From: a virus
Taxonomy: Duplodnaviria > Heunggongvirae > Uroviricota > Caudoviricetes
Reading direction: 5' to 3' (one strand)
Virus record (IMG/VR): IMGVR_UViG_2802429240_000009
Span: 1 to 26,735 of that record
Length of the DNA: 26,735 bases
Of this stretch, positions 1-18,301 are shown in pieces. Within the stretch, counting starts at the first letter, position 1; every line of letters begins with the position of its first letter. The notes below the pieces were generated by a model, which did no database searches, was not told the DNA's origin, and was given only the letters and a program-made list of their open reading frames with translations. Both the position numbers and the translations under genes were made by a program.

Positions 1-1164
1 TTACGCCTTCTTTATATCCTCCATAATTCCAGAGTGGGACATATTTGGGACATTATCACCAAAAATGTCGTCTATTTTCCTCGCATGCTCTGTCAAATGA
101 TTAGGCGCAAGGTGAGCATACCTACGAACCATTTCTATGGACTCCCATCCGCCCATTTCCTGAAGCACTGATAATGGGACGCCTGACTGAATCAGCCAGC
201 TTGCCCAGGTGTGTCTGAGGTCATGGAAACGGAAATCTTCAATTCCTGCACGACGACAAGCTGATAGCCATGATGTTTTGCTGTCGATGCGCATCTTCCT
301 GACCGCAGGCGTTGATGTTCCATCTGCTCGCTTAGCCGCCTTGGTATGTACAAACACCCATTTGTGATGCTTGCCTATTTGATCACGCAACACTTTACAG
401 GCGGTATCGTTCAGCGCCACACCAATGGCGCGGTTTGATTTGCTCTCTTCTGGATTCACCCAGGCAACTCGTCGCTGCATGTCGATTTGTTGCCATTCCA
501 GATTTATGATGTTCGACTTTCTCAGACCAGTTGCCAGCGCAAACTTGACGACAGATTTCAGTGGTTCGGGGCACTCATCAATAAGGCGTTTTGCTTCCTC
601 CTTTTCCAGCCATCTGACTCGCTTGTTTCTGACCGCTGGTATATTGATTACAGGAGCTTTTTCCAGCCACTTCCAGTCGCGTTCTGCAGCACGGAGAATG
701 GCCTTTATCATGGCAAGATGCTTTGCCTTTGTCTGAGTTGATACTGGCTTTGGTTCATAAACAGGCGGTTCTTTACCTTTCCTGATGGCGGCCTGAACTT
801 TCTGTTTCCATATTTCTTTCGTCTTTCTGTTATGCATTCTGCTTACAGCAGAGTAAATCTTTGCCTCCGAGATATCTTTAAGCCTTATACCCTCAAAATG
901 TTCAAGCCAGAACTCAATCCGGCTTTTATCTGAATCGAGAGATTTTTTATCAGCTTTTTCCTCAAGCCATCTTAGGCAGGCCTCTTCAAAAGTGACATCA
1001 GGTAAATCCCCTAGCTTTTCTACTCGCCAGAGTTCTGCTTTTCGCTTGTCGTGCAACTCCTGAGCTTGCCGCTTGTCCTTTGTGCCAAGAGATTCCTTAA
1101 TTCGTTTCCCGCCCGGGAGCGAATACGAGGCATACCATATTTCATTTCTGCGGAAGAGTGACAT
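1..1164 (-). CDS. int: Phage tyrosine integrase (387 aa), phage-21/DLP12-type
   Basis: Full-length ORF on the minus strand with stop at window position 1-3. The C-terminal region has the tyrosine-recombinase signature ([11 protein letters not shown]...[16 protein letters not shown]). It sits at the prophage end next to an excisionase ORF. The attachment site would lie left of the window. Confidence 0.9.
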
Positions 1165-2060: not shown

Positions 2061-3125
2061 TTAAGTTGATTCCAGACTTCCTTTGGTAAAAGCTTGTATC
2101 AGTCTGTTTGCTGCTGCTTTCTGCGCTGCCACATTGGCAATAACAGATAGTTTTTCCTGGCTGGCTTTCGTGCAGATCCCCGCCCAGTTATCCATCAGAA
2201 AAAAATCCTCTCTTTCTGCAGAGCTGGTAGTTGCACATAGTTTTTCGATCATAGAAGTTATTTCTGCGATGGAATGATTAACCATCATCTGTTGAACCGC
2301 AAAACCGAAAGCGTTAATCATTACTCCATGGAACTGAATATAATCGCGCTTGTACGTAGCGTGGTGTACACCATGTCGGATTGAGTCAATCTGAGTTAGT
2401 GTAATCCATGCCTCCCAGACAGATTCTATATATCCCATTTCAAGTTGTTGATTGCCGTTCCTGGCGAACTTTGACGTTGCATCAGTGAGTGCCTTGAAAC
2501 TCACCCACATATTACTTTTTAATGGCACTACGTTGTGTTCAAAATCGGTTATATCGGCAAATACAGTATGTTGGGTCAGGAAGGATATCATTCCCTGAGC
2601 AATATCATCCCGGCCGTTATACGCCATATTGATGGTCGCTGATGGCTTAGAAACGTTGTTATTTATGTCCGAAAAGAACTGCTGCCGGGTTTTTAGCGGC
2701 AGATTCATTGTAAGCATCATGGGAACCATGAGCGTTGATGGGGAACTTCGGCAAAATATCTCAATGCCAGCTGCACGATGTTGACCATCAAAAAGTTTTA
2801 TTTCGGCGTCGAGGGGAATTCTGGCTATACCAACATTTGTGTTGCCAAACGGTACAAATTCTATATTCGAATCACAGTTACCTACGAGAGGGGGAATGAT
2901 AAAAGGCTCATTTCTTGAGTCTGCGTTAGTGAGATAATTTAAAAATTTTCGTACTCGATTTGGATTAATTTCTCGCTGAGAGCGTTCCAGTGTATGGCCG
3001 TAATTATCTGAAGCGAGGAAACGAGCCAGCGATCTTCCTGGTATGGTAAGGAAGAGTGTAACAGTACCACCCTGTACACCTTGCGATGCCGGAAATTCGA
3101 ATGAATGATTACCAACCTGACTCAT
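2061..3125 (-). CDS. DGQHR-motif protein (DndB-like, ParB/sulfiredoxin-fold superfamily), 354 aa; accessory gene
   Basis: The literal motif IKLFDGQHRAAGIEIF is present in the protein. AGGAGG lies 7 nt upstream of the ATG. The gene sits where lambda carries its dispensable orf63/orf61/ea22/ea8.5 genes. Confidence 0.7.
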   Translation of the reverse strand: MSQVGNHSFEFPASQGVQGGTVTLFLTIPGRSLARFLASDNYGHTLERSQREINPNRVRKFLNYLTNADSRNEPFIIPPLVGNCDSNIEFVPFGNTNVGIARIPLDAEIKLFDGQHRAAGIEIFCRSSPSTLMVPMMLTMNLPLKTRQQFFSDINNNVSKPSATINMAYNGRDDIAQGMISFLTQHTVFADITDFEHNVVPLKSNMWVSFKALTDATSKFARNGNQQLEMGYIESVWEAWITLTQIDSIRHGVHHATYKRDYIQFHGVMINAFGFAVQQMMVNHSIAEITSMIEKLCATTSSAEREDFFLMDNWAGICTKASQEKLSVIANVAAQKAAANRLIQAFTKGSLEST

Positions 3126-3280: not shown

Positions 3281-3957
3281 CGCCATTGCTCCCCAAATAC
3301 AAAACCAATTTCAGCCAGTGCCACGTCCATTTTTTCGATGAACTCCGGCACCATCTCGTCAAAATTCGCCATGTACTTTTCATTCCGCTCAATCACGACA
3401 TAATGCAGGCCTTCACGCTTCATACGCGGGTCATAGTTGGCAAAGTACCAGGCATCTTTTCGCGTCACCCACATGCTGTACTGCACCTGGGCCATGTAAG
3501 CCGATTTTATGGCCTCGAAACCACCGAGCCGGAACTTCATGAAATCCCGGGAGGTAAACGGGCATTTCAGTTCAAGGCCGTTGCCGTCACTGCATAAACC
3601 ATCGGGAGAGCAGGCGGTGCGCATACTTTCGTCGCGATAGATGATCGGGGATTCAGTAACATTCACGCCGGAAGTGAATTCAAACAGGGTTCTGGCGTCG
3701 TTCTCGTACTGTTTTCCCCAGGCCAGCGCCTTAGCATTAACTTCCGGAGCCACACCGGTGCAAACCTCAGCCAGCAGGGTGTGGAAGTAGGACATTTTCA
3801 TGTCAGGCCACTTCTTTCCTGAGCGGGGCTTTGCTATCACGTTGTGAACTTCTGAAGCGGTGATGACGCCGAGCCGTAATTTGTGCCATGCATCATCCCC
3901 CTGTTCGACAGCTCTCACGTCGATCCCGGTACGCTGCAGGATAATGTCCGGTGTCAT
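3277..3957 (-). CDS. exo: Lambda-type 5'-3' exonuclease (Red alpha), 226 aa
   Basis: Near-identical over its full length to lambda Exo as recalled ([43 protein letters not shown]...). Confidence 0.95.
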
Positions 3958-7012: not shown

Positions 7013-7552
7013 ATGCAACCACTTACATACCAACAGACTAGCGGATTTAGCCCGACTGCGGTGATAAATCGTTCTCAAACAAAACAGGTGCCAGGCCACG
7101 AAAAAATCCGTGATGCCGTCCGCGCCTGGTCGGCTGTAGATAATCAGGATGTCGTTGCCACACTCATTGTGAATGAGTATCGGGAGCAGGGCGGCGGCAC
7201 CATCGATTTCCCTGATGATGTCAGCCGTGCACGCCAGAAGCTGTTCCGCTTCCTCGATAACAAATTCGATTCTGAAAAATACCGAAATAACGTGCGTGAA
7301 CTGACCCCGGCAATTCTGGCGGTACTACCGCTGGAATATCGCGGTTACCTGGTTGAGCAGGATAGCTTCATGGCTAGGTTGGCTGAAATGGAAAAGGAAC
7401 TCAGTGAGGCAAAACAGGCTGTCATTCTCAACGCACCACGCCACCAGAAACTGAAGGAAATTAGTGAAGGTATTGTGTCGATGTTTCGTGTGGACCCAGA
7501 TCTGGCTGGTCCATTGATGGCGATGGTTACTACCATGCTGGGGGCGATATGA
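7013..7552 (+). CDS. cII-position protein, possibly YdaT-family (179 aa)
   Basis: ORF with AAGGAG Shine-Dalgarno between cro and O. The motif EYREQGGG resembles what I recall of YdaT-family proteins that pair with Cro-like YdaS in Rac-type immunity regions. Its stop overlaps an ATG at 7549 (ATGA). Confidence 0.55.
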   Translation: MQPLTYQQTSGFSPTAVINRSQTKQVPGHEKIRDAVRAWSAVDNQDVVATLIVNEYREQGGGTIDFPDDVSRARQKLFRFLDNKFDSEKYRNNVRELTPAILAVLPLEYRGYLVEQDSFMARLAEMEKELSEAKQAVILNAPRHQKLKEISEGIVSMFRVDPDLAGPLMAMVTTMLGAI

Positions 7553-7638: not shown

Positions 7639-8568
7639 ATGGCAAACACTGCTGAGATATTCAATTTTCCAGTGCCGGATGCGGCACAAAAGGAGCCGCG
7701 CGTGGCAGATCTCGATGATGGTTATACGCGCATTGCAAATGAGTTGCTGGAAGCTGTGATGCTGACCGGATTAACACAGCACCAGCTTCTGGTCTTTCTG
7801 GCTGTCATGCGCAAAACATATGGCTTTAATAAAAGACTGGATTGGGTGAGCAACGAGCAACTTTCCGAATTGACCGGGATATTGCCGCACAAGTGTTCTG
7901 CTGCAAAAAGCGTTCTGGTAAAGCGTGGGATTCTTATTCAGAGCGGGCGGAATATCGGCATTAATAATGTGGTCAGTGAATGGTCAACATTACCCGAATC
8001 AGGTAAGAAAAATAAAGTTTACCTGAAAGAGGTAAATTTACCTGAATCAGGTAAGAAAAGTTTACCCAAATCAGGTAAAGGCGTTTACCCGAATCAGGTA
8101 AACACAAAAGACAAACTAACAAAAGACAATATAAAACCTTTTTCGTCCGAGAATTCTGGCGAATCCTCTGACCAGCCAGAAAACGATCTTCCTGTGGTGA
8201 AACCGGATGCTGCAATTCAGAGCGGCAGCAAGTGGGGGACAGCAGAAGACCTGACCGCCGCAGAGTGGATGTTTGACATGGTGAAGACTATCGCACCATC
8301 AGCCAGAAAACCGAATTTTGCTGGGTGGGCTAACGATATCCGCCTGATGCGTGAACGTGACGGACGTAACCACCGCGACATGTGCGTGCTGTTCCGCTGG
8401 GCATGCCAGGACAACTTCTGGTCCGGTAACGTGCTGAGCCCGGCCAAACTCCGCGATAAGTGGACCCAACTCGAAATCAACCGTAACAAGCAACAGGCAG
8501 GCGTGATAGCCAGCAAACCAAAACTCGACCTGACGAACACTGACTGGATTTACGGGGTGGAGCTATGA
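7639..8568 (+). CDS. O: Replication initiator O (hybrid: divergent N-terminal iteron-binding domain, lambda-like C-terminal domain)
   Basis: N-terminus MANTAEIFNF...VADLDDGY parallels lambda O; C-terminus (AEWMFDMVKTIAPSARKPNFAGWANDIRLMRERDGRNHRDMCVLFRWACQDNFWSGNVLSPAKLRDKWTQLEINRNKQQAG...) is lambda-like. GGGAGG precedes the ATG at 7639. An alternative coupled start at 7549 exists. The gene contains the iteron array. Confidence 0.8.
   Translation: MANTAEIFNFPVPDAAQKEPRVADLDDGYTRIANELLEAVMLTGLTQHQLLVFLAVMRKTYGFNKRLDWVSNEQLSELTGILPHKCSAAKSVLVKRGILIQSGRNIGINNVVSEWSTLPESGKKNKVYLKEVNLPESGKKSLPKSGKGVYPNQVNTKDKLTKDNIKPFSSENSGESSDQPENDLPVVKPDAAIQSGSKWGTAEDLTAAEWMFDMVKTIAPSARKPNFAGWANDIRLMRERDGRNHRDMCVLFRWACQDNFWSGNVLSPAKLRDKWTQLEINRNKQQAGVIASKPKLDLTNTDWIYGVEL
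7990..8145. repeat. Origin of replication: five near-palindromic iterons plus an AT-rich tract inside O
   Basis: Iterons of consensus TTTACC(C/T)GAATCAGGTAA at 7990-8006, 8018-8036, 8037-8054, 8061-8079 and 8084-8102, followed by the A/T-rich stretch 8103-8145. This is the same architecture as ori-lambda. Confidence 0.8.
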
Positions 8569-9266
8569 AAAACATCGCCGCACAGATGGTTAACTTTGAC
8601 CGTGAGCAGATGCGTCGGATCGCCAACAACATGCCGGAACAGTACGACGAAAAGCCGCAGGTACAACAGGTAGCGCAGATCATCAATGGTGTGTTCAGCC
8701 AGTTACTAGCAACTTTCCCGGCGAGCCTGGCTAACCGGGACCAGAACGAACTGAACGAAATCCGCCGCCAGTGGGTGCTGGCTTTCCGGGAAAACGGGAT
8801 CACCACAATGGAACAGGTTAACGCAGGAATGCGCGTAGCCCGTCGGCAGAATCGACCATTCCTGCCATCACCCGGGCAGTTTGTCGCCTGGTGCCGGGAA
8901 GAAGCATCCATTACCGCCGGGCTGCCAAACGCCAGCGAGCTGGTTGATATGGTTTACGAGTATTGCCGGAAGCGTGGCCTGTATCCGGACGCAGAGTCTT
9001 ATCCATGGAAATCGAACGCGCACTACTGGCTGGTTACCAACCTGTACCAGAACATGCGAGCCAATGCGCTGACTGACGCGGAATTACGGCGCAAGGCTGC
9101 CGATGAACTGACCTGTATGACAGCGCGAATTAACCGTGGTGAGGCTATACCTGAACCAGTAAAACAACTTCCTGTCATGGGCGGTAGACCTCTAAATCGT
9201 GCACAGGCTCTGGCGAAGATCGCAGAAATCAAAGCTAAGTTTGGGCTTAAAGGAGCAAGTGTATGA
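8565..9266 (+). CDS. P: Replication protein P (DnaB helicase loader), 233 aa
   Basis: Near-identical to lambda P as recalled (MKNIAAQMVNFDREQMRRIANNMPEQYDEKPQVQQVAQIINGVFSQLLATFPASLANRDQNE...). Confidence 0.95.
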   Translation: MKNIAAQMVNFDREQMRRIANNMPEQYDEKPQVQQVAQIINGVFSQLLATFPASLANRDQNELNEIRRQWVLAFRENGITTMEQVNAGMRVARRQNRPFLPSPGQFVAWCREEASITAGLPNASELVDMVYEYCRKRGLYPDAESYPWKSNAHYWLVTNLYQNMRANALTDAELRRKAADELTCMTARINRGEAIPEPVKQLPVMGGRPLNRAQALAKIAEIKAKFGLKGASV

Positions 9267-9565
9267 CGGGCAAAGAGGCAATTATTCATTACCTGGGGAC
9301 TCATAAGAACTTCTGTGCGCAGGACGTTGCCGCGGTAACAGGCGCAACCGTAACCAGCATAAATCAGGCTGCGGCTAAAATGGCGCGGGCAGGAATCCTG
9401 GTCGTTGATGGTAAGGTCTGGCGAACGGTGTATTACCGGTTCGCTACCAGAGAAGAACGGGAAGGAAAGGTGAGCACGAATCTGATTTTTAAGGAGTGTC
9501 GCCAGAGTGCCGCGATGAAACGGGTATTGAGGGTATATAAAAGAACATCAATGGGTACACAATGA
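9263..9565 (+). CDS. ren: Ren protein (100 aa)
   Basis: Close match to lambda Ren (MTGKEAIIHYLGTHKNFCAQDVAAVTGATVTSINQAAAKMARAG...). Start overlaps the P stop. Confidence 0.9.
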   Translation: MTGKEAIIHYLGTHKNFCAQDVAAVTGATVTSINQAAAKMARAGILVVDGKVWRTVYYRFATREEREGKVSTNLIFKECRQSAAMKRVLRVYKRTSMGTQ

Positions 9566-9632
9566 TGAAACAGGTGAGTTGAGTTCAAACTGTAGTACAA
9601 TTCTCTCCAGTTTGAACAGGAAAGAATATGCT

Positions 9633-9965
9633 ATGAACCCTTATATTTATCTTGGTGGTGCAATACTTGCAGAGGTCATTGGTACAACCTTAATGAAGTT
9701 TTCAGAAGGTTTTACACGGTTATGGCCATCTGTTGGTACAATTATTTGTTATTGTGCATCATTCTGGTTATTAGCTCAGACGCTGGCTTATATTCCTACA
9801 GGGATTGCTTATGCTATCTGGTCAGGAGTCGGTATTGTCCTGATTAGCTTACTGTCATGGGGACTTTTCGGCCAACGGCTGGACCTGCCAGCCATTATAG
9901 GCATGATGTTGATTTGTGCCGGTGTGTTGGTTATTAATTTATTGTCACGAAGCACACCACATTAA
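9633..9965 (+). CDS. emrE: EmrE small multidrug resistance (SMR) efflux transporter, 110 aa
   Basis: Matches E. coli EmrE essentially residue for residue from MNPYIYLGGAILAEVIGTTLMKFSEGF, including the conserved Glu14. The ORF-track start at 9579 is an upstream extension covering a hairpin. AT-rich relative to the backbone. Confidence 0.95.
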   Translation: MNPYIYLGGAILAEVIGTTLMKFSEGFTRLWPSVGTIICYCASFWLLAQTLAYIPTGIAYAIWSGVGIVLISLLSWGLFGQRLDLPAIIGMMLICAGVLVINLLSRSTPH

Positions 9966-9995
9966 AATAATTTGTTTCTAAACGACTAAAATATG

Positions 9996-10036
9996 GAGGC
10001 TCTTATATTTATATGAGCCTCGTTTTATGCTTTTTG
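9996..10036 (+). terminator. Intrinsic terminator after emrE
   Basis: GAGGCTC (9996-10002) and GAGCCTC (10015-10021) form a 7-bp stem with a 12-nt AT loop, followed by GTTTTATGCTTTTTG. Confidence 0.6.
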
Positions 10037-10219
10037 TTAATGTCTTTATTTTTTATGTATTCTTTTGTGCTTTCAAGATTATGGCGTAAGAAAATTGCAA
10101 TACGATTATTGTTGTATATTCAAGATAATGTGACCTTAATTGTCTTTTTAAATAAAAATTAAACAAAAATTATATCCCACCACTAAGGTTTATAAAAGCA
10201 TACGTTAGCAGGTGTCACC

Positions 10220-11746
10220 ATGAAAAAAGCCATAGCATATATGCGATTTTCATCACCAGGTCAGATGTCTGGTGACTCATTAAACCGACAGAGAAGACTT
10301 ATTGCTGAATGGTTAAAGGTAAATAGTGATTATTATCTTGATACCATAACATATGAAGATTTAGGATTAAGTGCATTCAAAGGAAAGCATGCACAATCAG
10401 GAGCTTTTTCGGAATTTTTAGATGCTATAGAGCATGGTTATATATTGCCAGGAACTACATTGTTAGTTGAAAGTCTGGACAGACTTTCAAGAGAAAAAGT
10501 CGGTGAAGCGATTGAACGTCTGAAATTGATTTTGAATCACGGTATTGATGTTATAACTCTTTGCGACAATACAGTCTATAATATTGACTCTTTGAATGAG
10601 CCATATTCATTAATAAAAGCCATACTTATAGCACAAAGGGCAAATGAAGAAAGCGAGATAAAGTCAAGTCGGGTTAAATTATCATGGAAGAAAAAACGGC
10701 AGGATGCACTGGAATCAGGTACGATTATGACGGCGTCTTGTCCGAGATGGCTCTCATTGGATGACAAAAGAACGGCTTTTGTTCCAGACCCCGACAGGGT
10801 GAAAACTATTGAGCTAATTTTTAAACTCAGGATGGAAAGGCGCTCATTGAATGCAATAGCCAAGTATTTAAATGATCATGCTGTAAAGAATTTCTCAGGA
10901 AAAGAAAGTGCATGGGGACCTTCTGTAATTGAAAAATTATTAGCGAATAAAGCTCTGATAGGTATATGCGTACCTTCATATCGTGCAAGAGGGAAAGGGA
11001 TAAGTGAAATCGCTGGCTATTATCCCAGAGTCATATCAGATGATTTGTTTTACGCTGTACAGGAAATTCGGTTGGCACCTTTTGGTATTAGCAATAGTAG
11101 CAAGAATCCTATGCTAATAAATCTACTTCGAACAGTTATGAAGTGTGAGGCTTGTGGTAATACCATGATTGTTCATGCGGTATCTGGAAGTTTGCATGGC
11201 TATTATGTTTGTCCGATGAGAAGATTACATCGATGTGACAGGCCATCAATAAAAAGAGATTTGGTTGATTATAATATCATTAATGAATTGCTTTTTAATT
11301 GTAGCAAAATTCAACCAGTTGAAAACAAGAAAGATGCTAATGAAACTTTAGAGTTAAAAATTATTGAGCTTCAGATGAAAATTAATAATTTAATTGCTGC
11401 ATTATCTGTTGCGCCTGAAGTTACCGCTATAGCAGAAAAAATCAGAGTATTAGATAAGGAATTACGAAGGGCTTCTGTATCATTAAAAACTTTGAAGAGT
11501 AAAGCGGTGAGCTCACTTGGTGATTTTCATGCTATTGACTTAACCAGTAAAAATGGGCGAGAGCTATGTCGTACACTTGCCTATAAAACATTCGAAAAAA
11601 TCATAATCAATACAGATAATAAAACCTGTGATATCTATTTTATGAATGGCATTGTTTTTAAACACTATCCTTTAATGAAAACAATATCCGCCCAGCAGGC
11701 GATAAGTACTCTCAAATATATGGTTGATGGTGAGGTTTATTTTTGA
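10220..11746 (+). CDS. ybcK: Large serine recombinase (resolvase/invertase-type catalytic domain, recombinase domain, zinc ribbon), 508 aa
   Basis: N-terminal AIAYMRFSSPGQ with the probable catalytic Ser, then LNRQRRLI. Cys pairs CEACGN...YYVCPMRRLHRC form the zinc ribbon, and the C-terminus is coiled-coil-like. Size and position after emrE match DLP12 ybcK as I recall it. AT-rich. Confidence 0.85.
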   Translation: MKKAIAYMRFSSPGQMSGDSLNRQRRLIAEWLKVNSDYYLDTITYEDLGLSAFKGKHAQSGAFSEFLDAIEHGYILPGTTLLVESLDRLSREKVGEAIERLKLILNHGIDVITLCDNTVYNIDSLNEPYSLIKAILIAQRANEESEIKSSRVKLSWKKKRQDALESGTIMTASCPRWLSLDDKRTAFVPDPDRVKTIELIFKLRMERRSLNAIAKYLNDHAVKNFSGKESAWGPSVIEKLLANKALIGICVPSYRARGKGISEIAGYYPRVISDDLFYAVQEIRLAPFGISNSSKNPMLINLLRTVMKCEACGNTMIVHAVSGSLHGYYVCPMRRLHRCDRPSIKRDLVDYNIINELLFNCSKIQPVENKKDANETLELKIIELQMKINNLIAALSVAPEVTAIAEKIRVLDKELRRASVSLKTLKSKAVSSLGDFHAIDLTSKNGRELCRTLAYKTFEKIIINTDNKTCDIYFMNGIVFKHYPLMKTISAQQAISTLKYMVDGEVYF

Positions 11747-11857
11747 GTAATAATCACTTTTTCAACCGTGCTATAGTAAGAAAGTTAGGTAAGTACAATA
11801 AAATTATCTATCCTGAACGAAGCGTCCTGAGCTATGATTTTACTATAGGGACTGCCA

Positions 11858-12181
11858 ATGGATGCTGGCGTTCTCGTTCTAGCAGTTCAACAATCCCCAA
11901 TCACAAAACAATTCACTGATAACGAACTTTGCACACTCGCCTGGTTATGGCGAGCAGGGAATGTGATGTTAATTGCCTACCAGAACGTTACTCATCTTCT
12001 TCAGGATGCGGAGCATGGTGAAGCTGGTCACTTCACTTCCATCGAGCAAGAATATCCCCAGATACTCAACAGAGCGCGAGCAATCCTCGTCCGAGAAACG
12101 GCACATGTAAAACTTCAGCCGTGGCAGGATGATAAGTGGAGTCGAGTATTGCCGCATTTACCTCAGAATCTGTTTCAATAA
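11858..12181 (+). CDS. Hypothetical protein (107 aa)
   Basis: ORF only, with a weak ribosome-binding site and no recognisable motif. Its base composition is more GC-rich than the flanking AT-rich genes. It is followed by a perfect 10-bp hairpin. Confidence 0.3.
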   Translation: MDAGVLVLAVQQSPITKQFTDNELCTLAWLWRAGNVMLIAYQNVTHLLQDAEHGEAGHFTSIEQEYPQILNRARAILVRETAHVKLQPWQDDKWSRVLPHLPQNLFQ

Positions 12182-12199
12182 AGGCGCTAGTTAGTAAGG

Positions 12200-12225
12200 C
12201 TTCCGTCATTCTGCGATGACGGAAG
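12200..12225. other. Perfect 10-bp stem / 6-nt loop hairpin (CTTCCGTCAT-tctgcg-ATGACGGAAG) with no U-tract
   Basis: Read directly from the sequence. It lies 19 nt after the stop of the 107-aa ORF and 130 nt upstream of the HNH gene. Confidence 0.5.
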
Positions 12226-12355
12226 TGCGGGCTGCGTACGGGAGAGCAATTGCATGAATAATATAAATATTCCGCTCACTCCATATAGCGATTTCTGATA
12301 CAAACTTATCTATTGTGGTAAAATTATAGAAACAAACTTATAGCGTACTAACCAT

Positions 12356-13138
12356 ATGGACAATATTAATAAACACGGGCTCTCAAGAAGAATACCTGAG
12401 ACAATAAAACGTCAGATAAGGCAAAGGTGCGGCTTTGGCTGTGTAATTTGTGGATTTGGATTTTATGATTATGAGCATTTTAAACCTGACTTCGTTGATG
12501 CCAAAGTACATGATCCGAATGGAATGACACTTCTTTGCTCCCAATGCAATCAAAAAAGAGCTCGTGGTAGACTTTCAGCACAGACAGTGGAAATAGCTGA
12601 CAGAAATCCCAAGTGCTTACAGGCTGGTTTTGCAAATGAAATGTTTGATTTTCATAATGAGCCTATAACAGTAAAATTTGCAGGAGTGACGTTTCATAAC
12701 TGTCAAAATTTGATTGTAGTCAATGAACAACCCATTCTTTCTGTGAAACCTTCACCCATACCACATGGACCGATGCTTTTATCAGGAATTTTCTGTAATT
12801 CTATTGGTAAGGAGACTTTACTGATAGATGAAAATGAATGGAAAGCTAAATCAGACAATTGGGATGTGGAGTGTACCGGCCCGCGTATAACAATACGACG
12901 TGGGCCAGGAGAGTTTGCCCTCGTTCTAAAAATGGAACCTCCAACAGGATTGATTGTTGAGCGTCTTGATATGTTGTATGAAGGGGTCAGGATGAAAGGA
13001 GATAAAGATCTGCTGGAAGTTTCGATTAATGGAGGTCCCTTGCACAGATGGCAATCATGCTCAATGTCAAATTGCCATACAGGGCTTGCGATTCAGGGCG
13101 GTATTAGAGCTGCTAATGATCCTTTGTATTGCGCCTAA
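12356..13138 (+). CDS. HNH-nuclease-domain protein with an uncharacterised C-terminal domain of about 190 aa (260 aa)
   Basis: N-terminal Cys4 HNH signature: CGFGCVICG ... YDYEHFKPDF ... DPNGMTLLCSQCNQ. The remainder is unrecognised. AT-rich. Confidence 0.7.
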   Translation: MDNINKHGLSRRIPETIKRQIRQRCGFGCVICGFGFYDYEHFKPDFVDAKVHDPNGMTLLCSQCNQKRARGRLSAQTVEIADRNPKCLQAGFANEMFDFHNEPITVKFAGVTFHNCQNLIVVNEQPILSVKPSPIPHGPMLLSGIFCNSIGKETLLIDENEWKAKSDNWDVECTGPRITIRRGPGEFALVLKMEPPTGLIVERLDMLYEGVRMKGDKDLLEVSINGGPLHRWQSCSMSNCHTGLAIQGGIRAANDPLYCA

Positions 13139-13178
13139 ATCCACTAAATTGATTTTCAACAATCAACTTGCCATAATT

Positions 13179-13211
13179 AAGTCACCGGAGTTTGAACTCC
13201 TCCGGTGACTT
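13179..13211. other. Perfect 12-bp stem / 9-nt loop hairpin (AAGTCACCGGAG...CTCCGGTGACTT) at the island/nin boundary
   Basis: Read directly from the sequence. It lies 41 nt after the HNH stop, with no convincing U-tract on either strand. Confidence 0.5.
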
Positions 13212-13330
13212 CTGCGCTAAACGGGGACGTTTATGCGCACATACAATCCAACCTCTCTTCTCCATTCTCAGATGCAGAAATGCACCTGCGATATTTTGCA
13301 TCCAGCGTTTGATCTCTGCGGAGGTGAAGC

Positions 13331-13786
13331 GTGAACCTCCCACAAGATGGTATCAAATTGCATCGCGGTAACTTCACCGCTATCGGTCGGCAGATCCAGC
13401 CTTATCTGGAGGACGGCAAATGCTTTCGCATGGTGCTTAAACCGTGGCGCGAGAGACGCAGTCTTTCCCAGAATGCACTCAGCCACATGTGGTACAGCGA
13501 AATCAGTGAATACCTCATCAGCAAGGGTAAAACGTTCGCCACTCCAGCTTGGGTAAAAGATGCTCTCAAACACACATATCTCGGTTATGAAACCAAAGAC
13601 CTGGTTGATGTCGTAACCGGTGATATCACCACTATCCAGTCGTTACGCCATACCTCCGATCTTGATACCGGAGAGATGTATGTCTTCCTGTGTAAGGTTG
13701 AAGCCTGGGCGGTGAATATTGGCTGCCACCTGACTATTCCGCAGAGCTGCGAGTTCCAGCTGCTCCGCGACAAGCAGGAGGCGTAA
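13331..13786 (+). CDS. ybcN: NinB/Orf-family recombination protein (151 aa)
   Basis: Position at the head of the nin region and a NinB-like motif ([20 protein letters not shown]). The stop overlaps the ninE start (TAATG). Size matches DLP12 YbcN as recalled. Confidence 0.75.
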
Positions 13787-13956
13787 TGGCTACACCGCTT
13801 ATTCGTGTCATGAACGGACACATCTACAGAGTACCAAATCGTCGTAAGCGTAAACCTGAGCTGAAGCCATCCGAAATACCAACACTGCTCGGATATACCG
13901 CCAGCTTGGTTGATAAAAAATGGTTGCGACTGGCAGCAAGGAGGAGTCATGGCTGA
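13786..13956 (+). CDS. ninE: NinE (56 aa)
   Basis: Translation by hand gives [56 protein letters not shown]. It is below the ORF-track cutoff and coupled to both neighbours. Confidence 0.7.
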   Translation: MATPLIRVMNGHIYRVPNRRKRKPELKPSEIPTLLGYTASLVDKKWLRLAARRSHG

Positions 13957-14239
13957 TTTGAGAAAAGCAGCGCGTGGTCGGGAATGCCAGGTAAGAATCC
14001 CTGGCGTATGTAATGGCAATTCTGAAACGTCTGTACTGGCACATATCCGGCTGGCTGGATTGTGCGGTACCGGTATCAAACCGCCAGACCTGATTGCCAC
14101 CATTGCATGTTCTGCCTGCCACGACGAAATCGACCGCCGCACACATTTTGTCGATGCTGCATATGCAAAAGAATGCGCGCTGGAAGGTATGGCGAGAACA
14201 CAGGTTATCTGGCTGAAAGAGGGGGTTATTAAGGCGTGA
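13949..14239 (+). CDS. ybcO: Nin-region Cys-rich protein, YbcO-like (96 aa)
   Basis: Starts [23 protein letters not shown], carries four or more Cys and sits between ninE and rusA. The start is chosen at the ATG overlapping the ninE stop. Confidence 0.75.
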
Positions 14240-14598
14240 ATACCTACAGTATCACATTACCCTGGCCTCCGAGCAATAATCGCTATTACCGCCATAATCG
14301 CGGGCGCACGCACGTCAGTGCAGAGGGGCAGGCATACCGCGATAACGTCGCCCGAATCATTAAAAACGCAATGCTGGATATCGGCCTGGCTATGCCTGTG
14401 AAAATCAGCATTGAGTGCCACATGCCGGATTGCCGTAGCCGTGACCTGGATAATCTGCAAAAAGCCGCTTTTGACGCACTCACTAAAGCAGGTTTCTGGC
14501 TGGATGATGCTCAGGTCGTTGATTACCGCGTTGTGAAGATGCCTGTTACCAAAGGTGGGAGGCTGGAACTGACCATCACCGAAATGGGGAATGAATGA
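14236..14598 (+). CDS. rusA: RusA Holliday-junction resolvase (120 aa)
   Basis: Matches E. coli RusA as recalled ([56 protein letters not shown]...[51 protein letters not shown]). GTG start. Confidence 0.95.
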
Positions 14599-14735
14599 TG
14601 TTTGAGTTTAATATGGCAGAACTTCTTCGCCACCGCTGGGGGCGTCTGCGCTTATATCGTTTCCCCGGCTCTGTTTTGACCGATTACCGAATACTGAAGA
14701 ATTACGCCAAAACACTGACAGGAGCAGGAGTATGA
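14595..14735 (+). CDS. ylcG: Small nin-region protein, YlcG-like (46 aa)
   Basis: Its ATG overlaps the rusA stop. Translation is [46 protein letters not shown]. Below the ORF-track cutoff. Confidence 0.5.
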
Positions 14736-14820
14736 AGTCAGAGATAACAATCAACTAATACTGTTTTGTTGATTTTTGCTTGTAATTGGCGTTCTGGTCT
14801 GAGTTTTGTGGAGTAAGTTG

Positions 14821-15198
14821 ATGCGTGATATTCAGATGGTTCTTGAGCGTTGGGGAGCGTGGGCGGCTAATAATCATGAAGATGTGACCTGGTCGTCCAT
14901 TGCCGCCGGTTTTAAGGGATTAATTCCTTCAAAAGTAAAATCTCGCCCGCAATGTTGTGACGATGACGCGATGATCATTTGCGGGTGCATGGCCCGTCTG
15001 AAAAAGAACAACAGCGATTTGCATGATTTATTGGTGGACTATTATGTCGGCGGCATGACTTTTATGGCGCTTGCACGTAAGCATGGGCGATCTGATTGTT
15101 GGGTTGGCAGGATGCTCCAGAAAGCTGAGGGCGTAGTGGAGGGTATGCTGATGGTGTTGGATCTCCGATTGGAGATGGATGCTGATTGTTCGAAATAA
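14821..15198 (+). CDS. Q: Late-gene antiterminator Q (phage-82/DLP12 QuuD type), 125 aa
   Basis: [35 protein letters not shown]...[12 protein letters not shown] matches the Q82 family. GGAG lies 7 nt upstream of the ATG at 14821. The ORF-track start at 14806 is a TTG extension. Confidence 0.9.
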
Positions 15199-15210
15199 TT
15201 AAAGGAAAAG

Positions 15211-15353: not shown

Positions 15354-15878
15354 TTATTGTTTAACCCATAATAATTCATTGACATTGAATCCCAACTTTT
15401 GAGCGGTTCGCACATAGTCTGCTTTTACTTTATCTGGAATAGTTGGGGTCCTTGCCAGAATCCATAGGTATTCTCTGTTCGGACCACTGACAAGAGCATA
15501 CTTATACTCATCATCCAGTTTGATTACATTATAGCCACCATAGAAGGGGCCAAAAAACGAAACCTTCAACGCTGCAGTTTTAGTATCTCCAGTAAAGTAT
15601 GCTTTACCTTCGCTCTCGCTCCATTTATTTTTCGTTGGATCGTATCCACGGTTAAGTACACGAATCCCTCCGTCGTTCCGTTTTCCATAGGTAGCGCTGA
15701 CCTGTTCCAGACCACGTTCGAACCGGTTCTCGAGGCGAGCTATTTCATACCATTTTCCGAGGTAGCGGTTGGCGTCAAAATTTGTAATCGGCTGCACACC
15801 TTTAGGTGGTGTCGGGGCCTTACATGCTATAAGAGTGAAAGAGAGTGCAATGCCAGTCAACACAGGCCATAACTTCAT
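15354..15878 (-). CDS. Bacterial lipocalin (Blc-like) outer-membrane lipoprotein, 174 aa
   Basis: Lipoprotein signal peptide with lipobox (MKLWPVLTGIALSFTLIAC). Lipocalin motifs (NFDANRYLGKWYEIARLENRFERGLE, KVSFFGPFYGGYNVI, YLWILARTP) resemble E. coli Blc as recalled. Opposite strand to the late operon and AT-rich. Confidence 0.8.
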   Translation of the reverse strand: MKLWPVLTGIALSFTLIACKAPTPPKGVQPITNFDANRYLGKWYEIARLENRFERGLEQVSATYGKRNDGGIRVLNRGYDPTKNKWSESEGKAYFTGDTKTAALKVSFFGPFYGGYNVIKLDDEYKYALVSGPNREYLWILARTPTIPDKVKADYVRTAQKLGFNVNELLWVKQ

Positions 15879-16070: not shown

Positions 16071-17030
16071 ATGATAAAAAAACCTGTGATTGGAATCAGC
16101 GGTTGTTTGGCCGGCTCTGCTGTTCGTTTTGATGGTGGTCACAAAAGAGCTGACTTTTTAATGGACAAATTAGTGGAATGGGTAACATTCAGACCAGTAT
16201 GTCCGGAAATGGCTATAGGGCTGCCAGTTCCGCGTCCTGCTCTACGTCTTGTGCGCTCGACGCAAGGAAATATACGGATGTGTTTCAGCCACGACCAGAA
16301 TGAGGATGTGACAGAGAGAATGACAGAGTTTAGTCGTTCTTATATGGACAAATTAAAGGATGTATCGGGGTTTGTGGTTTGTGCTAAATCTCCCAGCTGT
16401 GGCATGGAGCGCGTGCGTGTCTATGATGAAAATGGTAATCGAGGTCGTAAAGATGGAGTGGGACTATTTACGAGCACTTTGATGGAAAAGTTTTCCTGGC
16501 TACCGGTTGAAGAGGATGGGCGATTACATGATCCAGTGCTTCGTGAGAATTTTGTTGAAAGAGTTTTTGCTTTGCATGAGCTCAATCACCTTTACAAGGA
16601 GAAATTATCAAGAAGAGAGTTATTAGCTTTTCATAGTCGTTATAAGCTTCAGTTGTTGGCGCATAGTCAGGCAGGCTATAAAGATATGGGACCATTTGTG
16701 GCTGCAATACACGAGTGGGCGGACCTTGAATCATACTTTGAGGTGTATCGTGATAAGCTGATGGCGATTCTCAGAAAACCTGCATCACGTAAAAATCACA
16801 CGAATGTGCTGATGCATATACAGGGGTATTTTAGTAACTACTTAAGTACACGCCAGCGTAAAGAGTTGAGCGAGGTTATACTTAACTATCGTTCTGGCAC
16901 ATTACCTCTTCTTGCGCCGTTGACTCTGCTGAAGCATTATCTGGGTGAGTATCCTAATGATTACTTGCTTACACAGAATTACTTCGCTCCCTATCCGGAC
17001 GAACTGGCTCTAAGACTGATGGTAAATTAA
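16071..17030 (+). CDS. DUF523 (TudS-like, Cys-ligated Fe-S) / DUF1722 (YbgA-like) fusion protein, 319 aa
   Basis: N-terminal half has conserved Cys residues in a DUF523-like arrangement (GISGCLAG, VCPE, CAKSPSCG). The C-terminal half resembles YbgA/DUF1722 (ELLAFHSRYKLQLLAHS). GGGGGAG Shine-Dalgarno. This is a family assignment from memory. Confidence 0.65.
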   Translation: MIKKPVIGISGCLAGSAVRFDGGHKRADFLMDKLVEWVTFRPVCPEMAIGLPVPRPALRLVRSTQGNIRMCFSHDQNEDVTERMTEFSRSYMDKLKDVSGFVVCAKSPSCGMERVRVYDENGNRGRKDGVGLFTSTLMEKFSWLPVEEDGRLHDPVLRENFVERVFALHELNHLYKEKLSRRELLAFHSRYKLQLLAHSQAGYKDMGPFVAAIHEWADLESYFEVYRDKLMAILRKPASRKNHTNVLMHIQGYFSNYLSTRQRKELSEVILNYRSGTLPLLAPLTLLKHYLGEYPNDYLLTQNYFAPYPDELALRLMVN

Positions 17031-17372
17031 TTGTATGCGATATCATCCAAAAGGATGAGTTCCTGCATGCAAGATATTTACAATCGTAAAAACTACACTA
17101 TGATACCCAGAGTGTCAGTTTGTATAAAAACTCTGTTTACGCTGAAGAAACCATTGAGATGCAACTTAAAGTTGGTAAACATGCCAGTCAAAATATATAA
17201 TATTATGATTCCACGCAGCTATATATAATATAACAGATTGGTTTAATAATTTGTCTTTGTGAGTTAAATACATAATTTTATACTTGTGATGCAATGAGAT
17301 TTTCCTTATTGTTGAACTGGCGAATATTGATTTTCCACCTATACTTACCTGGTGTAACCCCAATGATATCAG

Positions 17373-18113
17373 GTGGATAATATGCCATACATATGTTCTA
17401 TCATTTTGGTGTTGAACTCGTTTGATGTCCGAATTGGTAAAGAAGATATTTTGTTTAAAAAAGGAAGTGCTGTTCTCATTGATTACAATTTAAAAGATTT
17501 TTTTTCATCAAATATAGATCATGTAATGATCGTAGATGTTGAAGAGAAAACAGTTAATGATTTCTTTAAAAGCAACACACTCTCACCTTTTTCTGTAAGA
17601 AGGTTTTATCCGGCATACTTGATGGTGGAATGTGAAGATTTTTCATTGTTAAAGAACTTGATTGCATGCTTGAATTGTGATGGCAGAACTGTGGATTTTG
17701 TTAGAAATCAAATATCACTTGCATGTCTTGCTATCTTATCTTCAGAGAAAATAGTGCAAAGTTTTTTATTTGGATGTCTTAATAGTTTAGGAAGTAAAGT
17801 TAAGGCTATTATTCACACGGATATATCTGCAGCATGGAGACTTTGTGATATATCTTCAAGACTGTATCTGAGTGAAAGTCTGTTAAAAAGAAAATTAAAG
17901 CACGAAGGCTTATCATTTAGTAAGTTAATTCTTGAAGAGCGAATGGTGATGGCGGAAAGGTTATTAAGCTACAATTTATATTCTGTTGGAAAAGTTGCTG
18001 AGATATGCGGTTATGAAAACACGTCATATTTTGTAAGTGTTTTCAGAAGATATTTTGGTGTTCCTCCCCATCAATATTCATCAAGACTTTTTTTAGAAAA
18101 AGACATGATGTAA
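17373..18113 (+). CDS. AraC/XylS-family transcriptional regulator (246 aa)
   Basis: C-terminal double HTH of the AraC family (VGKVAEICGYENTSYFVSVFRRYFGVPPHQY). Very AT-rich, with an AT-rich 340-bp upstream region. Confidence 0.8.
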   Translation: MDNMPYICSIILVLNSFDVRIGKEDILFKKGSAVLIDYNLKDFFSSNIDHVMIVDVEEKTVNDFFKSNTLSPFSVRRFYPAYLMVECEDFSLLKNLIACLNCDGRTVDFVRNQISLACLAILSSEKIVQSFLFGCLNSLGSKVKAIIHTDISAAWRLCDISSRLYLSESLLKRKLKHEGLSFSKLILEERMVMAERLLSYNLYSVGKVAEICGYENTSYFVSVFRRYFGVPPHQYSSRLFLEKDMM

Positions 18114-18174
18114 CGTGATGCGTTTTAATGATTTTGTAATTTTCGTATTTAATAATTGTATGATGCTTTCAGCT

Positions 18175-18206
18175 ACGCCAGAATAATCGCTGGCGTTTTT
18201 CTTTTT
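18175..18206 (+). terminator. Intrinsic terminator after the AraC-family gene
   Basis: ACGCCAG (18175-18181), 8-nt loop, CTGGCGT (18190-18196), followed by TTTTTCTTTTT. Confidence 0.6.
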
Positions 18207-18301
18207 GAATAGATGTTCAAGCCTTACGCTAATGTAACTTCTATACCTTTCCTCTTCGTTCCGAACCGTGTACACCATCCGTTATTTGCGGAGGTGAGGC
18301 T

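Follow-up and report, generated by a model that had tools for sequence, protein, structure and literature searches.

The closest described counterparts of the locus analysed here are the DLP12 prophage of Escherichia coli K-12 and the viable phage Perceval, which carry the efflux-transporter gene emrE and a gene for a large serine recombinase (ybcK in K-12; annotated in Perceval as 'Large serine recombinase, DLP12 YbcK homolog') at the same position between ren and ybcN. Annotation of the emrE–ybcK module already exists for K-12 and for isolated phages, and mosaicism of prophages is ordinary. In K-12, the untranslated region upstream of ybcK (t_ybcK) is reported to work as a Rho/NusG-dependent terminator (PMC4150792), and overexpression or deletion of ybcK alters solvent tolerance (PMC7181518); beyond these two observations, the literature on ybcK, on the hotspot described below and on dual integrases yielded no mechanistic description. 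A second comparison is offered by the defence hotspots of P2 and P4 phages (PMC9122126), the screen of prophage-borne defence in E. coli (PMC9519451) and the PADLOC models, with which the present junction shares conserved flanks and variable, mostly AT-rich cargo. Here we analyse a 26,735-nucleotide stretch of viral DNA (positions 1–26,735 of IMG/VR record IMGVR_UViG_2802429240_000009; hereafter the window), a DLP12-like lambdoid prophage in which an AT-rich block of about 3.6 kb, containing emrE, ybcK and a gene for an HNH-domain protein, lies between ren and nin-type genes. Comparison of this junction among related prophages indicates that the block is probably the filling of a mosaic two-slot accessory and defence hotspot and not a single nested mobile element, and that YbcK probably does not mobilise the island.

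The window contains, in order, a tyrosine integrase, a CI-type repressor, O, P, ren, the AT-rich block, ylcH, ybcN, ninE, ybcO, rusA, ylcG and Q. The prophage's own integrase is a tyrosine recombinase (positions 1–1164, minus strand; PF00589, 5.5e-47). The chromosome of E. coli strain 1517k contains region 8500–14700 with 100% identity, and stretches within this region are matched in 4545 of 5426 complete E. coli genomes, the set in which all frequencies below were counted. Boundaries were first mapped on eight annotated configurations from E. coli, and the comparison was then widened by over 100 loci; the context of ybcK was also followed in 80 IMG/VR prophage loci carrying the gene. The reference loci are a lambda-like locus without cargo (L003), three loci without emrE or ybcK (L004, L009 and L011), a K-12-type island (L007) and a chromosomal emrE islet (L010). 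In K-12 DLP12 and in Perceval, emrE, ylcJ, ybcK and the flanking genes are about 97–98% identical to those of the window. What follows ybcK differs: ybcL–ybcM in K-12, an alpha/beta-hydrolase gene in Perceval and, in the window, the remnant of a Bro/P22AR_C gene and an HNH-beta gene, a combination present in only 82 of the complete genomes.

The AT-rich block is a composite of modules

GC content is 0.380 at 9539–13148, compared with 0.511 across O–P–ren and 0.493 at 13149–15200, and nowhere else in the window does a stretch of 3.6 kb have a lower GC content; same-size, non-overlapping segments average 0.483 ± 0.051 with a minimum of 0.392. The first-pass annotation of this DNA had read the block as AT-rich cargo at the ren/nin junction, flanked on both sides by GC-balanced backbone, and had named base composition as a check on that reading; the difference in composition holds, and horizontal acquisition of the cargo is supported. 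Pfam and fold assignments likewise agree with the emrE gene, the 508-residue serine recombinase and the HNH gene that it had listed. The small open reading frame (ORF) reported between the last two does exist, with 107 residues, but is the 3′ half of a 202-residue Bro-N/P22AR_C gene and not an intact gene (Table 1).

The limits of the block were set by homology. On the left, homology to L003, L004 and L009 ends at 9529–9538, within the last nine or so codons of ren, and the Ren C-termini accordingly vary among configurations. On the right, homology returns at exactly 13149 in all configurations, with or without emrE and ybcK, and the first backbone genes past the hotspot are ylcH and ybcN, the stop codon of the former overlapping the start of the latter. 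Internal breakpoints shared with different sibling types split the block into modules with separate histories. Module A (about 9530–11857) comprises emrE with its own terminator-like hairpin, the AT-rich leader and ybcK; module B (11858–12181) is the Bro-N/P22AR_C remnant; and module C (12182–13148) is a cassette of one gene.

Table 1 Features of the block and its flanks, in window coordinates, with the chromosomal islet in the coordinates of its own loci
Feature	Position	Strand	Evidence or remark
ren	9263–9565	+	'Protein ren' annotation in sibling loci; last ~9 codons on the cargo side of the left breakpoint
Hairpin upstream of emrE, 10-bp stem	9583–9617	+	−13.4 kcal/mol, z = −1.9; within module A
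emrE, small multidrug-resistance efflux transporter, 110 residues	9633–9965	+	Pfam PF00893, 3e-35; phrog_1395, 4.9e-58; RefSeq emrE
AT-rich ybcK leader (GC 0.27)	9966–10219	+	Contains the 49-residue ylcJ ORF, 10013–10162 (Pfam YlcJ, 2.4e-35)
Terminator-like hairpin and U-tract	9996–10027	+	Fold of 9985–10035: −14 kcal/mol, z = −3.8, stem then GUUUUAU; overlaps the ylcJ start codon
ybcK, intact large serine recombinase, 508 residues	10220–11746	+	Resolvase, Recombinase and Zn_ribbon_recom domains (Pfam)
Breakpoint, K-12 type	11755		Followed there by ybcL–ybcM
Breakpoint, O157 type	11812		Nothing more there as cargo
Module B, 107-residue ORF, 3′ remnant of 202-residue antirepressor-like Bro-N/P22AR_C gene	11858–12181	+	Pfam P22_AR_C, 1.1e-13
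Breakpoint, alpha/beta-hydrolase type	12031
Breakpoints, several types	12161–12174
Hairpin opening module C, 12-bp stem	12199–12226	+	Fold z = −2.6
Promoter-like site ahead of HNH gene	12295–12324	+	Consensus scan; scan overall not above chance
Module C, 260-residue protein, N-terminal HNH domain and C-terminal all-beta domain	12356–13138	+	Fold comparison
Conserved backbone element, right breakpoint	13149–13239	+	Shared start of homology; hairpin pair, fold z = −7.0
ylcH (33 residues, 13233–13334) and ybcN (13331–13786)	13233–13786	+	RefSeq on an identical locus; NCBIfam PRK09741, 4.7e-83, for YbcN
emrE–ybcL–ybcM islet	L010, 5001–7931; L157 and L158, 5078–6937		Chromosomal

Two slots with interchangeable cargo

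In loci without emrE and ybcK the order is ren, slot 1, a full 202-residue Bro-N + P22AR_C gene, slot 2 and the right boundary. Slot 1, which module A occupies in the window, has at least four alternative fillings, among them PD-lambda-1 (PADLOC, 2.4e-198). Slot 2 has at least eight distinct cargos: siblings carry either nothing, a 169-residue protein, a pair of 90 and 105 residues, a 118-residue protein, the 260-residue HNH protein, the 314-residue BstA (L033/L005; PADLOC, 3.8e-121), an opposite-strand lipoprotein esterase, ybcL–ybcM or insertions of IS2 and IS66, and loci without emrE and ybcK hold the 169-residue protein or a HEPN protein (3e-06; L011) with a partner. Unrelated cargo is exchanged at the same junction in phages that have no ybcK (L004, L009 and L011). 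Among the 80 IMG/VR loci, ren, emrE, ylcJ and ybcK are linked in all 80 wherever the contig reaches far enough; by the spacing between ybcK and the right boundary these loci form at least ten length classes, which match different cargos.

Conserved flanks, many alternative cargo alleles and known defence systems among the cargos together identify the junction as a hotspot. As in the described defence hotspots, validated defence genes (BstA and PD-lambda-1) fill these slots in sibling phages; unlike a pure defence hotspot, the junction also accepts emrE, ybcL–ybcM and an esterase. We found no description in the searchable literature of a ren|ybcN junction with two slots parted by a Bro-N/P22AR_C gene. 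Its cargos of unknown function, namely the 260-residue HNH-beta protein, the 169- and 118-residue proteins and the pair of 90 and 105 residues, become candidates for defence screens.

The modules also differ in history and frequency. The full-length 202-residue gene of L009 and L011 carries both Bro-N and P22_AR_C, and the ORF of module B begins with nine codons of new junction sequence and is in frame with the full gene from VQQSPITKQF onwards. All variants share the N-terminus MDAGVLVLA, so the truncation of this gene occurred once; it probably came about when module A was inserted into slot 1, leaving module B behind. Ratios of non-synonymous to synonymous substitution (dN/dS) of 0.14–0.80 indicate weaker constraint on module B than on ybcK. 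Of the complete genomes, 1424 (26%) carry ybcK and 82 carry the HNH module, whereas emrE–ybcL–ybcM is found without ybcK in 2619. No copy of the HNH module falls below 99% identity, and this suggests that it spread recently.

The hotspot separates the replication genes (P, ren) of DLP12-like lambdoid phages from their ylcH–ybcN nin-type genes. From these observations we propose that its cargo turns over when lambdoid phages that co-infect a cell or reside in it recombine, homologously or illegitimately. Such exchange would take place at conserved flanks, namely the P/ren end to the left and the structured ylcH leader to the right, and YbcK would not drive it. On this proposal, emrE (efflux) and the HNH protein (a probable exclusion or defence nuclease) would be cargo that benefits the host.

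Several points weigh against the hotspot interpretation. The proposed exchange mechanism is deduced from the positions of the breakpoints. The ylcJ–ybcK pair is a discrete indel of about 2.08 kb, and the recombinase gene recurs as a gene-sized unit at many phage positions (see below), each of which fits a gene that once moved by itself. Missing attachment (att) sites are weak evidence against mobility, because short imperfect sites are hard to detect. A consensus scan found 16 promoters, compared with 12.3 ± 3.3 in shuffled sequences, and 3 terminators, compared with 2.9 ± 1.9; neither count is above chance, which weighs on autonomous expression of the cargo in the manner of a 'moron'. Finally, the defence role of the HNH-beta protein rests on position and fold, with no significant PADLOC match.

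The hairpins lie away from the edges of the block

The earlier reading had suggested an element nested in the prophage, a remnant or still mobilisable, with a hairpin at each end of 9570–13215, or else a recombinase co-opted for another role. In the fullest form of the first suggestion, YbcK mobilises or once mobilised the whole block and the two hairpins act as its attachment sites. An intact integrase-type serine recombinase within an AT-rich block, hairpins near both ends and, shared in inverted orientation by the left hairpin and the right hairpin's loop, an 11-nt match (GAGTTCAAACT) speak for such an element. Both hairpins exist, with the 10-bp and 12-bp stems described, but they do not end the block: given the homology limits at 9529–9538 and 13149, the left hairpin is inside the emrE module and the right one is backbone. 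The left hairpin, of marginal stability (z = −1.9), is also present in the chromosomal emrE islet L010, which is homologous from window position 9556 and has no ybcK, with one stem mismatch that is uncompensated. The right hairpin (13179–13211) folds at −20 kcal/mol (z = −5.75 against shuffled sequences) and occurs, with everything from 13149 onwards, in L004, L009 and L011.

We judge the inverted match to be a chance one. Most ybcK loci have the loop GCYTGAACAA instead, and the GAGTTCAAACT loop variant also occurs in L011, without emrE or ybcK. A search of 9400–13400 for terminal or inverted repeats gave only short, low-identity matches, none above chance, short imperfect sites being beyond its reach. 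Rfam has no family for any of the hairpins, those of the right boundary included, and no copy of the whole 3.6-kb block was found in another genomic context. A block of at least three modules, with internal breakpoints, very different module frequencies and no delimiting repeats, at a junction that takes unrelated cargo in phages without ybcK, makes a single integrative element scarcely credible. Comparative genomics of the junction, which the first-pass annotation had recommended, did reveal a presence/absence polymorphism, with edges that differ from the hairpins and are shared with unrelated cargo; the att-like sites that it had suggested looking for were detected neither among repeats at 9400–13400 nor in the flanks of YbcK orthologues.

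A structured element marks the right boundary

The backbone resumes at 13149 with a promoter-like sequence (TTGATT-N6-AATCAA ... CATAAT), followed by hairpin 1 (13179–13211) and hairpin 2 (13213–13239). The GGGA loop of hairpin 2 resembles a ribosome-binding site, and its 3′ arm holds the start codon of ylcH. Across 19 distinct sequences, 6 base pairs of the two hairpins have changed on both sides, compared with 2.1 ± 1.0 in shuffles, and 89% of cells are paired, the slid controls giving 27–57%. In the stems, the variants replace C by U while retaining G–U pairs, indicating an RNA structure on the sense strand. At the position of this element the lambda-like locus L003 has a GC-rich hairpin and then a T-run just before ninB, which we take to be the lambda terminator tR2. 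The element occurs twice in L009 (3134–3235 and 5069–5169) and in L011 (1794–1894 and 4116–4216), bracketing the Bro gene and slot 2, and these copies form direct repeats of about 100–140 bp; a cassette could be added or removed by homologous recombination between them. The boundary element may serve both as a translational or termination control element and as a substrate for cassette gain and loss.

The same element could instead be imagined as the site of an integron-like cassette exchange driven by YbcK. It is conserved, contains palindromes and forms direct repeats around a cassette in L009 and L011, and in the K-12 type the variable slot starts only a few bases past the ybcK stop codon (11755). 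However, the two loci with the duplicated element have no ybcK, and the same right boundary and the same diversity of cargo occur without that gene. The C-to-U variants that keep G–U pairs point to RNA and not to a double-stranded DNA site, and the left breakpoints of slot 2 are scattered (11755, 11812, 12031 and 12161–12174) and define no single site. We regard YbcK-driven cassette exchange as very improbable.

YbcK has the architecture of a serine integrase

YbcK was correctly recognised at the outset as a second recombinase, of another family than the tyrosine integrase and of integrase size: over its 508 residues it matches the serine-integrase domains PF00239 (7.7e-19), PF07508 (2.3e-14) and PF13408 (8.2e-08). 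Residues R9, S11, D19, R23, Q24, D87, R88 and R91, the helix-E motif and the zinc-ribbon cysteines C309, C312, C331 and C339 are invariant in 18 orthologues with 41–61% identity. The catalytic Ser and Arg residues, in which inactivating substitutions had been considered, are thus intact. Among six E. coli alleles, dN/dS is 0.00–0.16. YbcK is, to judge from its sequence, intact, under purifying selection and hence functional-looking.

An AlphaFold2 model (pLDDT 79) predicts a catalytic domain, a long alphaE helix, a recombinase domain, a zinc ribbon and a coiled coil (helices 369–397 and 402–430), with an extra C-terminal alpha/beta subdomain at 444–507. Foldseek matched the full length of this model to serine integrases solved with bound att sites, including those of phiC31 and Bxb1 (E = 2e-18 to 5e-14), and a phmmer search of YbcK against PDB sequences found no match. 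YbcK thus resembles the integrases of phiC31, Bxb1 and PDB 9dxd (the last solved in att-site and RDF complexes) in domain order, catalytic residues, zinc ribbon and coiled coil. Unlike them, it is encoded away from the prophage end in the window, coexists with a tyrosine integrase and carries the extra subdomain; its sequence similarity to the solved integrases is below phmmer detection, and the repeat search at 9400–13400 found no cognate att sites. Sites of serine integrases are short imperfect palindromes that share only a 2-bp core. Flanks conserved among the YbcK orthologues did not exceed 13 nt.

Within E. coli, ybcK was found outside the ren–emrE context in none of the loci inspected and in none of the 80 IMG/VR loci. 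A partial ybcK (H100), considered as an alternative context, proved to be a plain deletion in a decaying prophage. A role as a tail-fibre invertase of the Gin/Cin kind was also considered and rejected, there being no oppositely oriented copies of tail-fibre or assembly genes beside the recombinase. The gene lies in sense orientation downstream of O, P and ren, so that, by what is known of lambda, antiterminated early transcription should read through into it and YbcK should be made on infection or induction. Once made, it would act on recombination sites outside the island. A quarter of complete E. coli genomes, that of K-12 among them, encode this complete serine integrase, and an orthogonal serine integrase native to E. 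coli would be of practical interest for genome engineering.

Orthologues of YbcK in other phages

In other Enterobacterales the orthologues occupy positions that are classic for accessory genes of temperate phages. In Atlantibacter, Yersinia, Erwinia, Ewingella and several IMG/VR contigs, the phage genes end with the recombinase gene, which follows the tail fibres and adjoins host DNA. In Atlantibacter sp. RC6 (60% identity) and Pantoea L016 (42%) it follows the replication genes, as in the window, and the Pantoea prophage has its own tyrosine integrase. Other copies are placed close to Q and the lysis genes; one stands between host genes and the int–CI–CII end of a P2/186-like prophage, and one in a plasmid-like context. 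In L108 and L112 the gene has a tyrosine integrase beside it.

A terminal position beside host DNA is where an integrase would sit, and YbcK might on that account be a second, alternative integrase of the whole phage, with an attP elsewhere in the phage genome and a second chromosomal site. Its full serine-integrase architecture, including the coiled coil, fits this idea, as does its place in the early operon, from which it would be made on infection. The prophage junctions that can be read tell against it. At one of them (L106, 12084–12128), about 550 bp past the YbcK orthologue, a 45-nt fragment matches part of annotated E. coli tRNA-Thr genes with 100% identity and represents a 3′ half; ARAGORN finds no complete tRNA in the L106 locus. 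In a second case (L012) the prophage abuts ssrA. A tRNA fragment at a prophage end is the scar typical of integration by a tyrosine integrase. Such enzymes are moreover encoded beside the recombinase or in the same prophage, and in the window no recognisable attP lies close to ybcK, which is 9 kb away from the end of the prophage.

The case for the terminal orthologues as integrases of their carrier phages is weakened by these marks (the L106 tRNA-Thr half-site, the L012 ssrA junction and the tyrosine integrases of L108 and L112), and we consider a dual-integrase role quite improbable. Because the readable junctions bear the marks of tyrosine integrases, the YbcK family appears instead to be an accessory recombinase. 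Purifying selection on the gene likewise favours an accessory role, in line with the other role that the first-pass annotation had offered as its alternative. In a broader version of this proposal, YbcK would represent a conserved class of accessory large serine recombinases that temperate enterobacterial phages carry in addition to their tyrosine integrases, at accessory-gene positions past the tail fibres next to att or behind the replication genes, and that, once early transcription reads through, act on an outside target, for example a secondary attachment site, a competing prophage, a satellite or a plasmid, without integrating their carrier; secondarily, the HNH-beta protein would be a new single-gene anti-phage system. 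We advance this version tentatively and think it rather unlikely.

Three further observations concern the orthologue loci. Just past the recombinase terminator, L106, L117 and L118 all contain an 11-nt piece of the L106 tRNA-Thr fragment (AATCAGTAGGT). In the same three loci a conserved 67-residue ORF (11736–11939 in L106) travels with the recombinase, and homology among these different contexts breaks off directly behind the ORF. The 67-residue product could be a partner or directionality factor, and no counterpart is evident in the window. In Citrobacter koseri (L105, 8145–11530), the orthologue is divergent beside a 555-residue protein with a faint Shufflon_N match, in a plasmid-like or ICE-like setting (TraD, MobA/MobL), which hints that some members of the YbcK family might act as invertases.

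The emrE module and a chromosomal islet

EmrE matches the small multidrug-resistance (SMR) family over residues 3–94 (profile positions 2–93 of 93), with the essential, membrane-embedded Glu14 present in MNPYIYLGGAILAE. Downstream of it, ylcJ is annotated as frameshifted in several siblings. The islet in which emrE, ybcL and ybcM are contiguous without ylcJ or ybcK lies between fliE and yedK and is 90–92% identical to the DLP12-type island. We read the islet as a phage leftover because its end still consists of a diverged boundary element and part of ylcH; in about half of E. coli genomes, phage cargo has thus outlived its phage.

Compared with the islet, the K-12-type island L007 has an extra 2.08 kb made up of ylcJ, ybcK and 310 bp, and the junctions of this indel are AT-rich and share a 6-bp AATAAT repeat only. 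It follows that ylcJ–ybcK was either added to an older emrE–ybcL–ybcM cargo or lost from it. In one version of the former history, a unit of about 2.1 kb (leader, recombinase and short flanks) is or was a solo serine-recombinase mini-element, inserted in the emrE–ybcL spacer and maybe still mobile. The indel itself and the orthologues that stand as single genes after tail fibres, after O/P, near Q and lysis genes, beside a P2-like integrase and in a plasmid-like context favour this history, as does an all-versus-all DNA comparison of the orthologue loci, which found gene-sized homology only (Atlantibacter copies in different contexts share just the stretch from −68 bp to the stop codon). On the other side, the junctions are fuzzy, with no inverted repeats or conserved ends, and no second context was found in the 1424 E. 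coli genomes or the 80 IMG/VR loci. A gene-sized unit without shared flanks fits ordinary shuffling of phage genes equally well, and the indel could be a deletion in the lineage of the islet. A solo mini-element is in our view unlikely, and the notion of a nested element survives only as a possible history of this unit of about 2.1 kb.

Downstream of ybcK in L007 (about 3740–3805), within the 310 bp that are absent from the window, there is a perfect 13-bp inverted repeat (AAAATACGTGACA ... TGTCACGTATTTT, 24 bp apart) that could be a protein-binding site or a terminator.

The HNH-beta protein of slot 2

The 260-residue protein of module C has no Pfam or NCBIfam match, and the BstA profile of PADLOC does not match it. 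It belongs to a family of about 260 residues with 50–79% identity across Enterobacterales, Burkholderia, Comamonas, Pseudomonas and Vibrio, in which an N-terminal domain of the HNH type (beta-beta-alpha-metal fold), bearing an invariant His and a Cys4 zinc site, is joined to a C-terminal beta-rich domain. The fold, the Cys4 site, the invariant His and residence in a slot of defence type are shared with the type IV restriction enzymes EcoKMcrA and TagI, with CBASS Cap5, with Septu PtuB and with retron-associated HNH proteins. The C-terminal domain matches none of the sensor or DNA-binding domains of these nucleases, and there is neither a partner ATPase nor a SAVED domain. Membership of the Septu system (PtuA/PtuB) was rejected, as no partner ATPase is present.

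Homologues are found directly after P in Enterobacter, in the nin-like region of a Klebsiella phage, counter-oriented in the early region of a Pseudomonas prophage and, in Comamonas, beside an XRE-type regulator and an insertion sequence. Since slot 2 also holds BstA or HEPN proteins and the fold is that of a nuclease, the HNH-beta protein is most likely a candidate defence or exclusion nuclease. In the post-replication region of a Rac-like Enterobacter prophage (L101–L103, 9806–11185), a gene for a RES-domain toxin follows the HNH-beta homologue, with two small ORFs in between.

Other possible accessory genes of the window

Elsewhere in the window, a second AT-rich block (17000–18250; GC 0.32) lies between Q and the lysis genes, carries an AraC-type regulator (17373–18113) and resembles a further cargo slot. 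Just upstream of it lie a lipocalin gene (15354–15878, minus strand) and a 2-thiouracil desulfurase/DUF1722 gene (16071–17030). A protein with a YdaT_toxin domain (8.5e-30) is encoded at the cII position (7013–7552), directly upstream of a replication gene. In the early-left region (2061–3125, minus strand), a DndB-like protein associated with DNA sulfur modification (PF14072, 3.8e-46) is a possible accessory gene of defence type.

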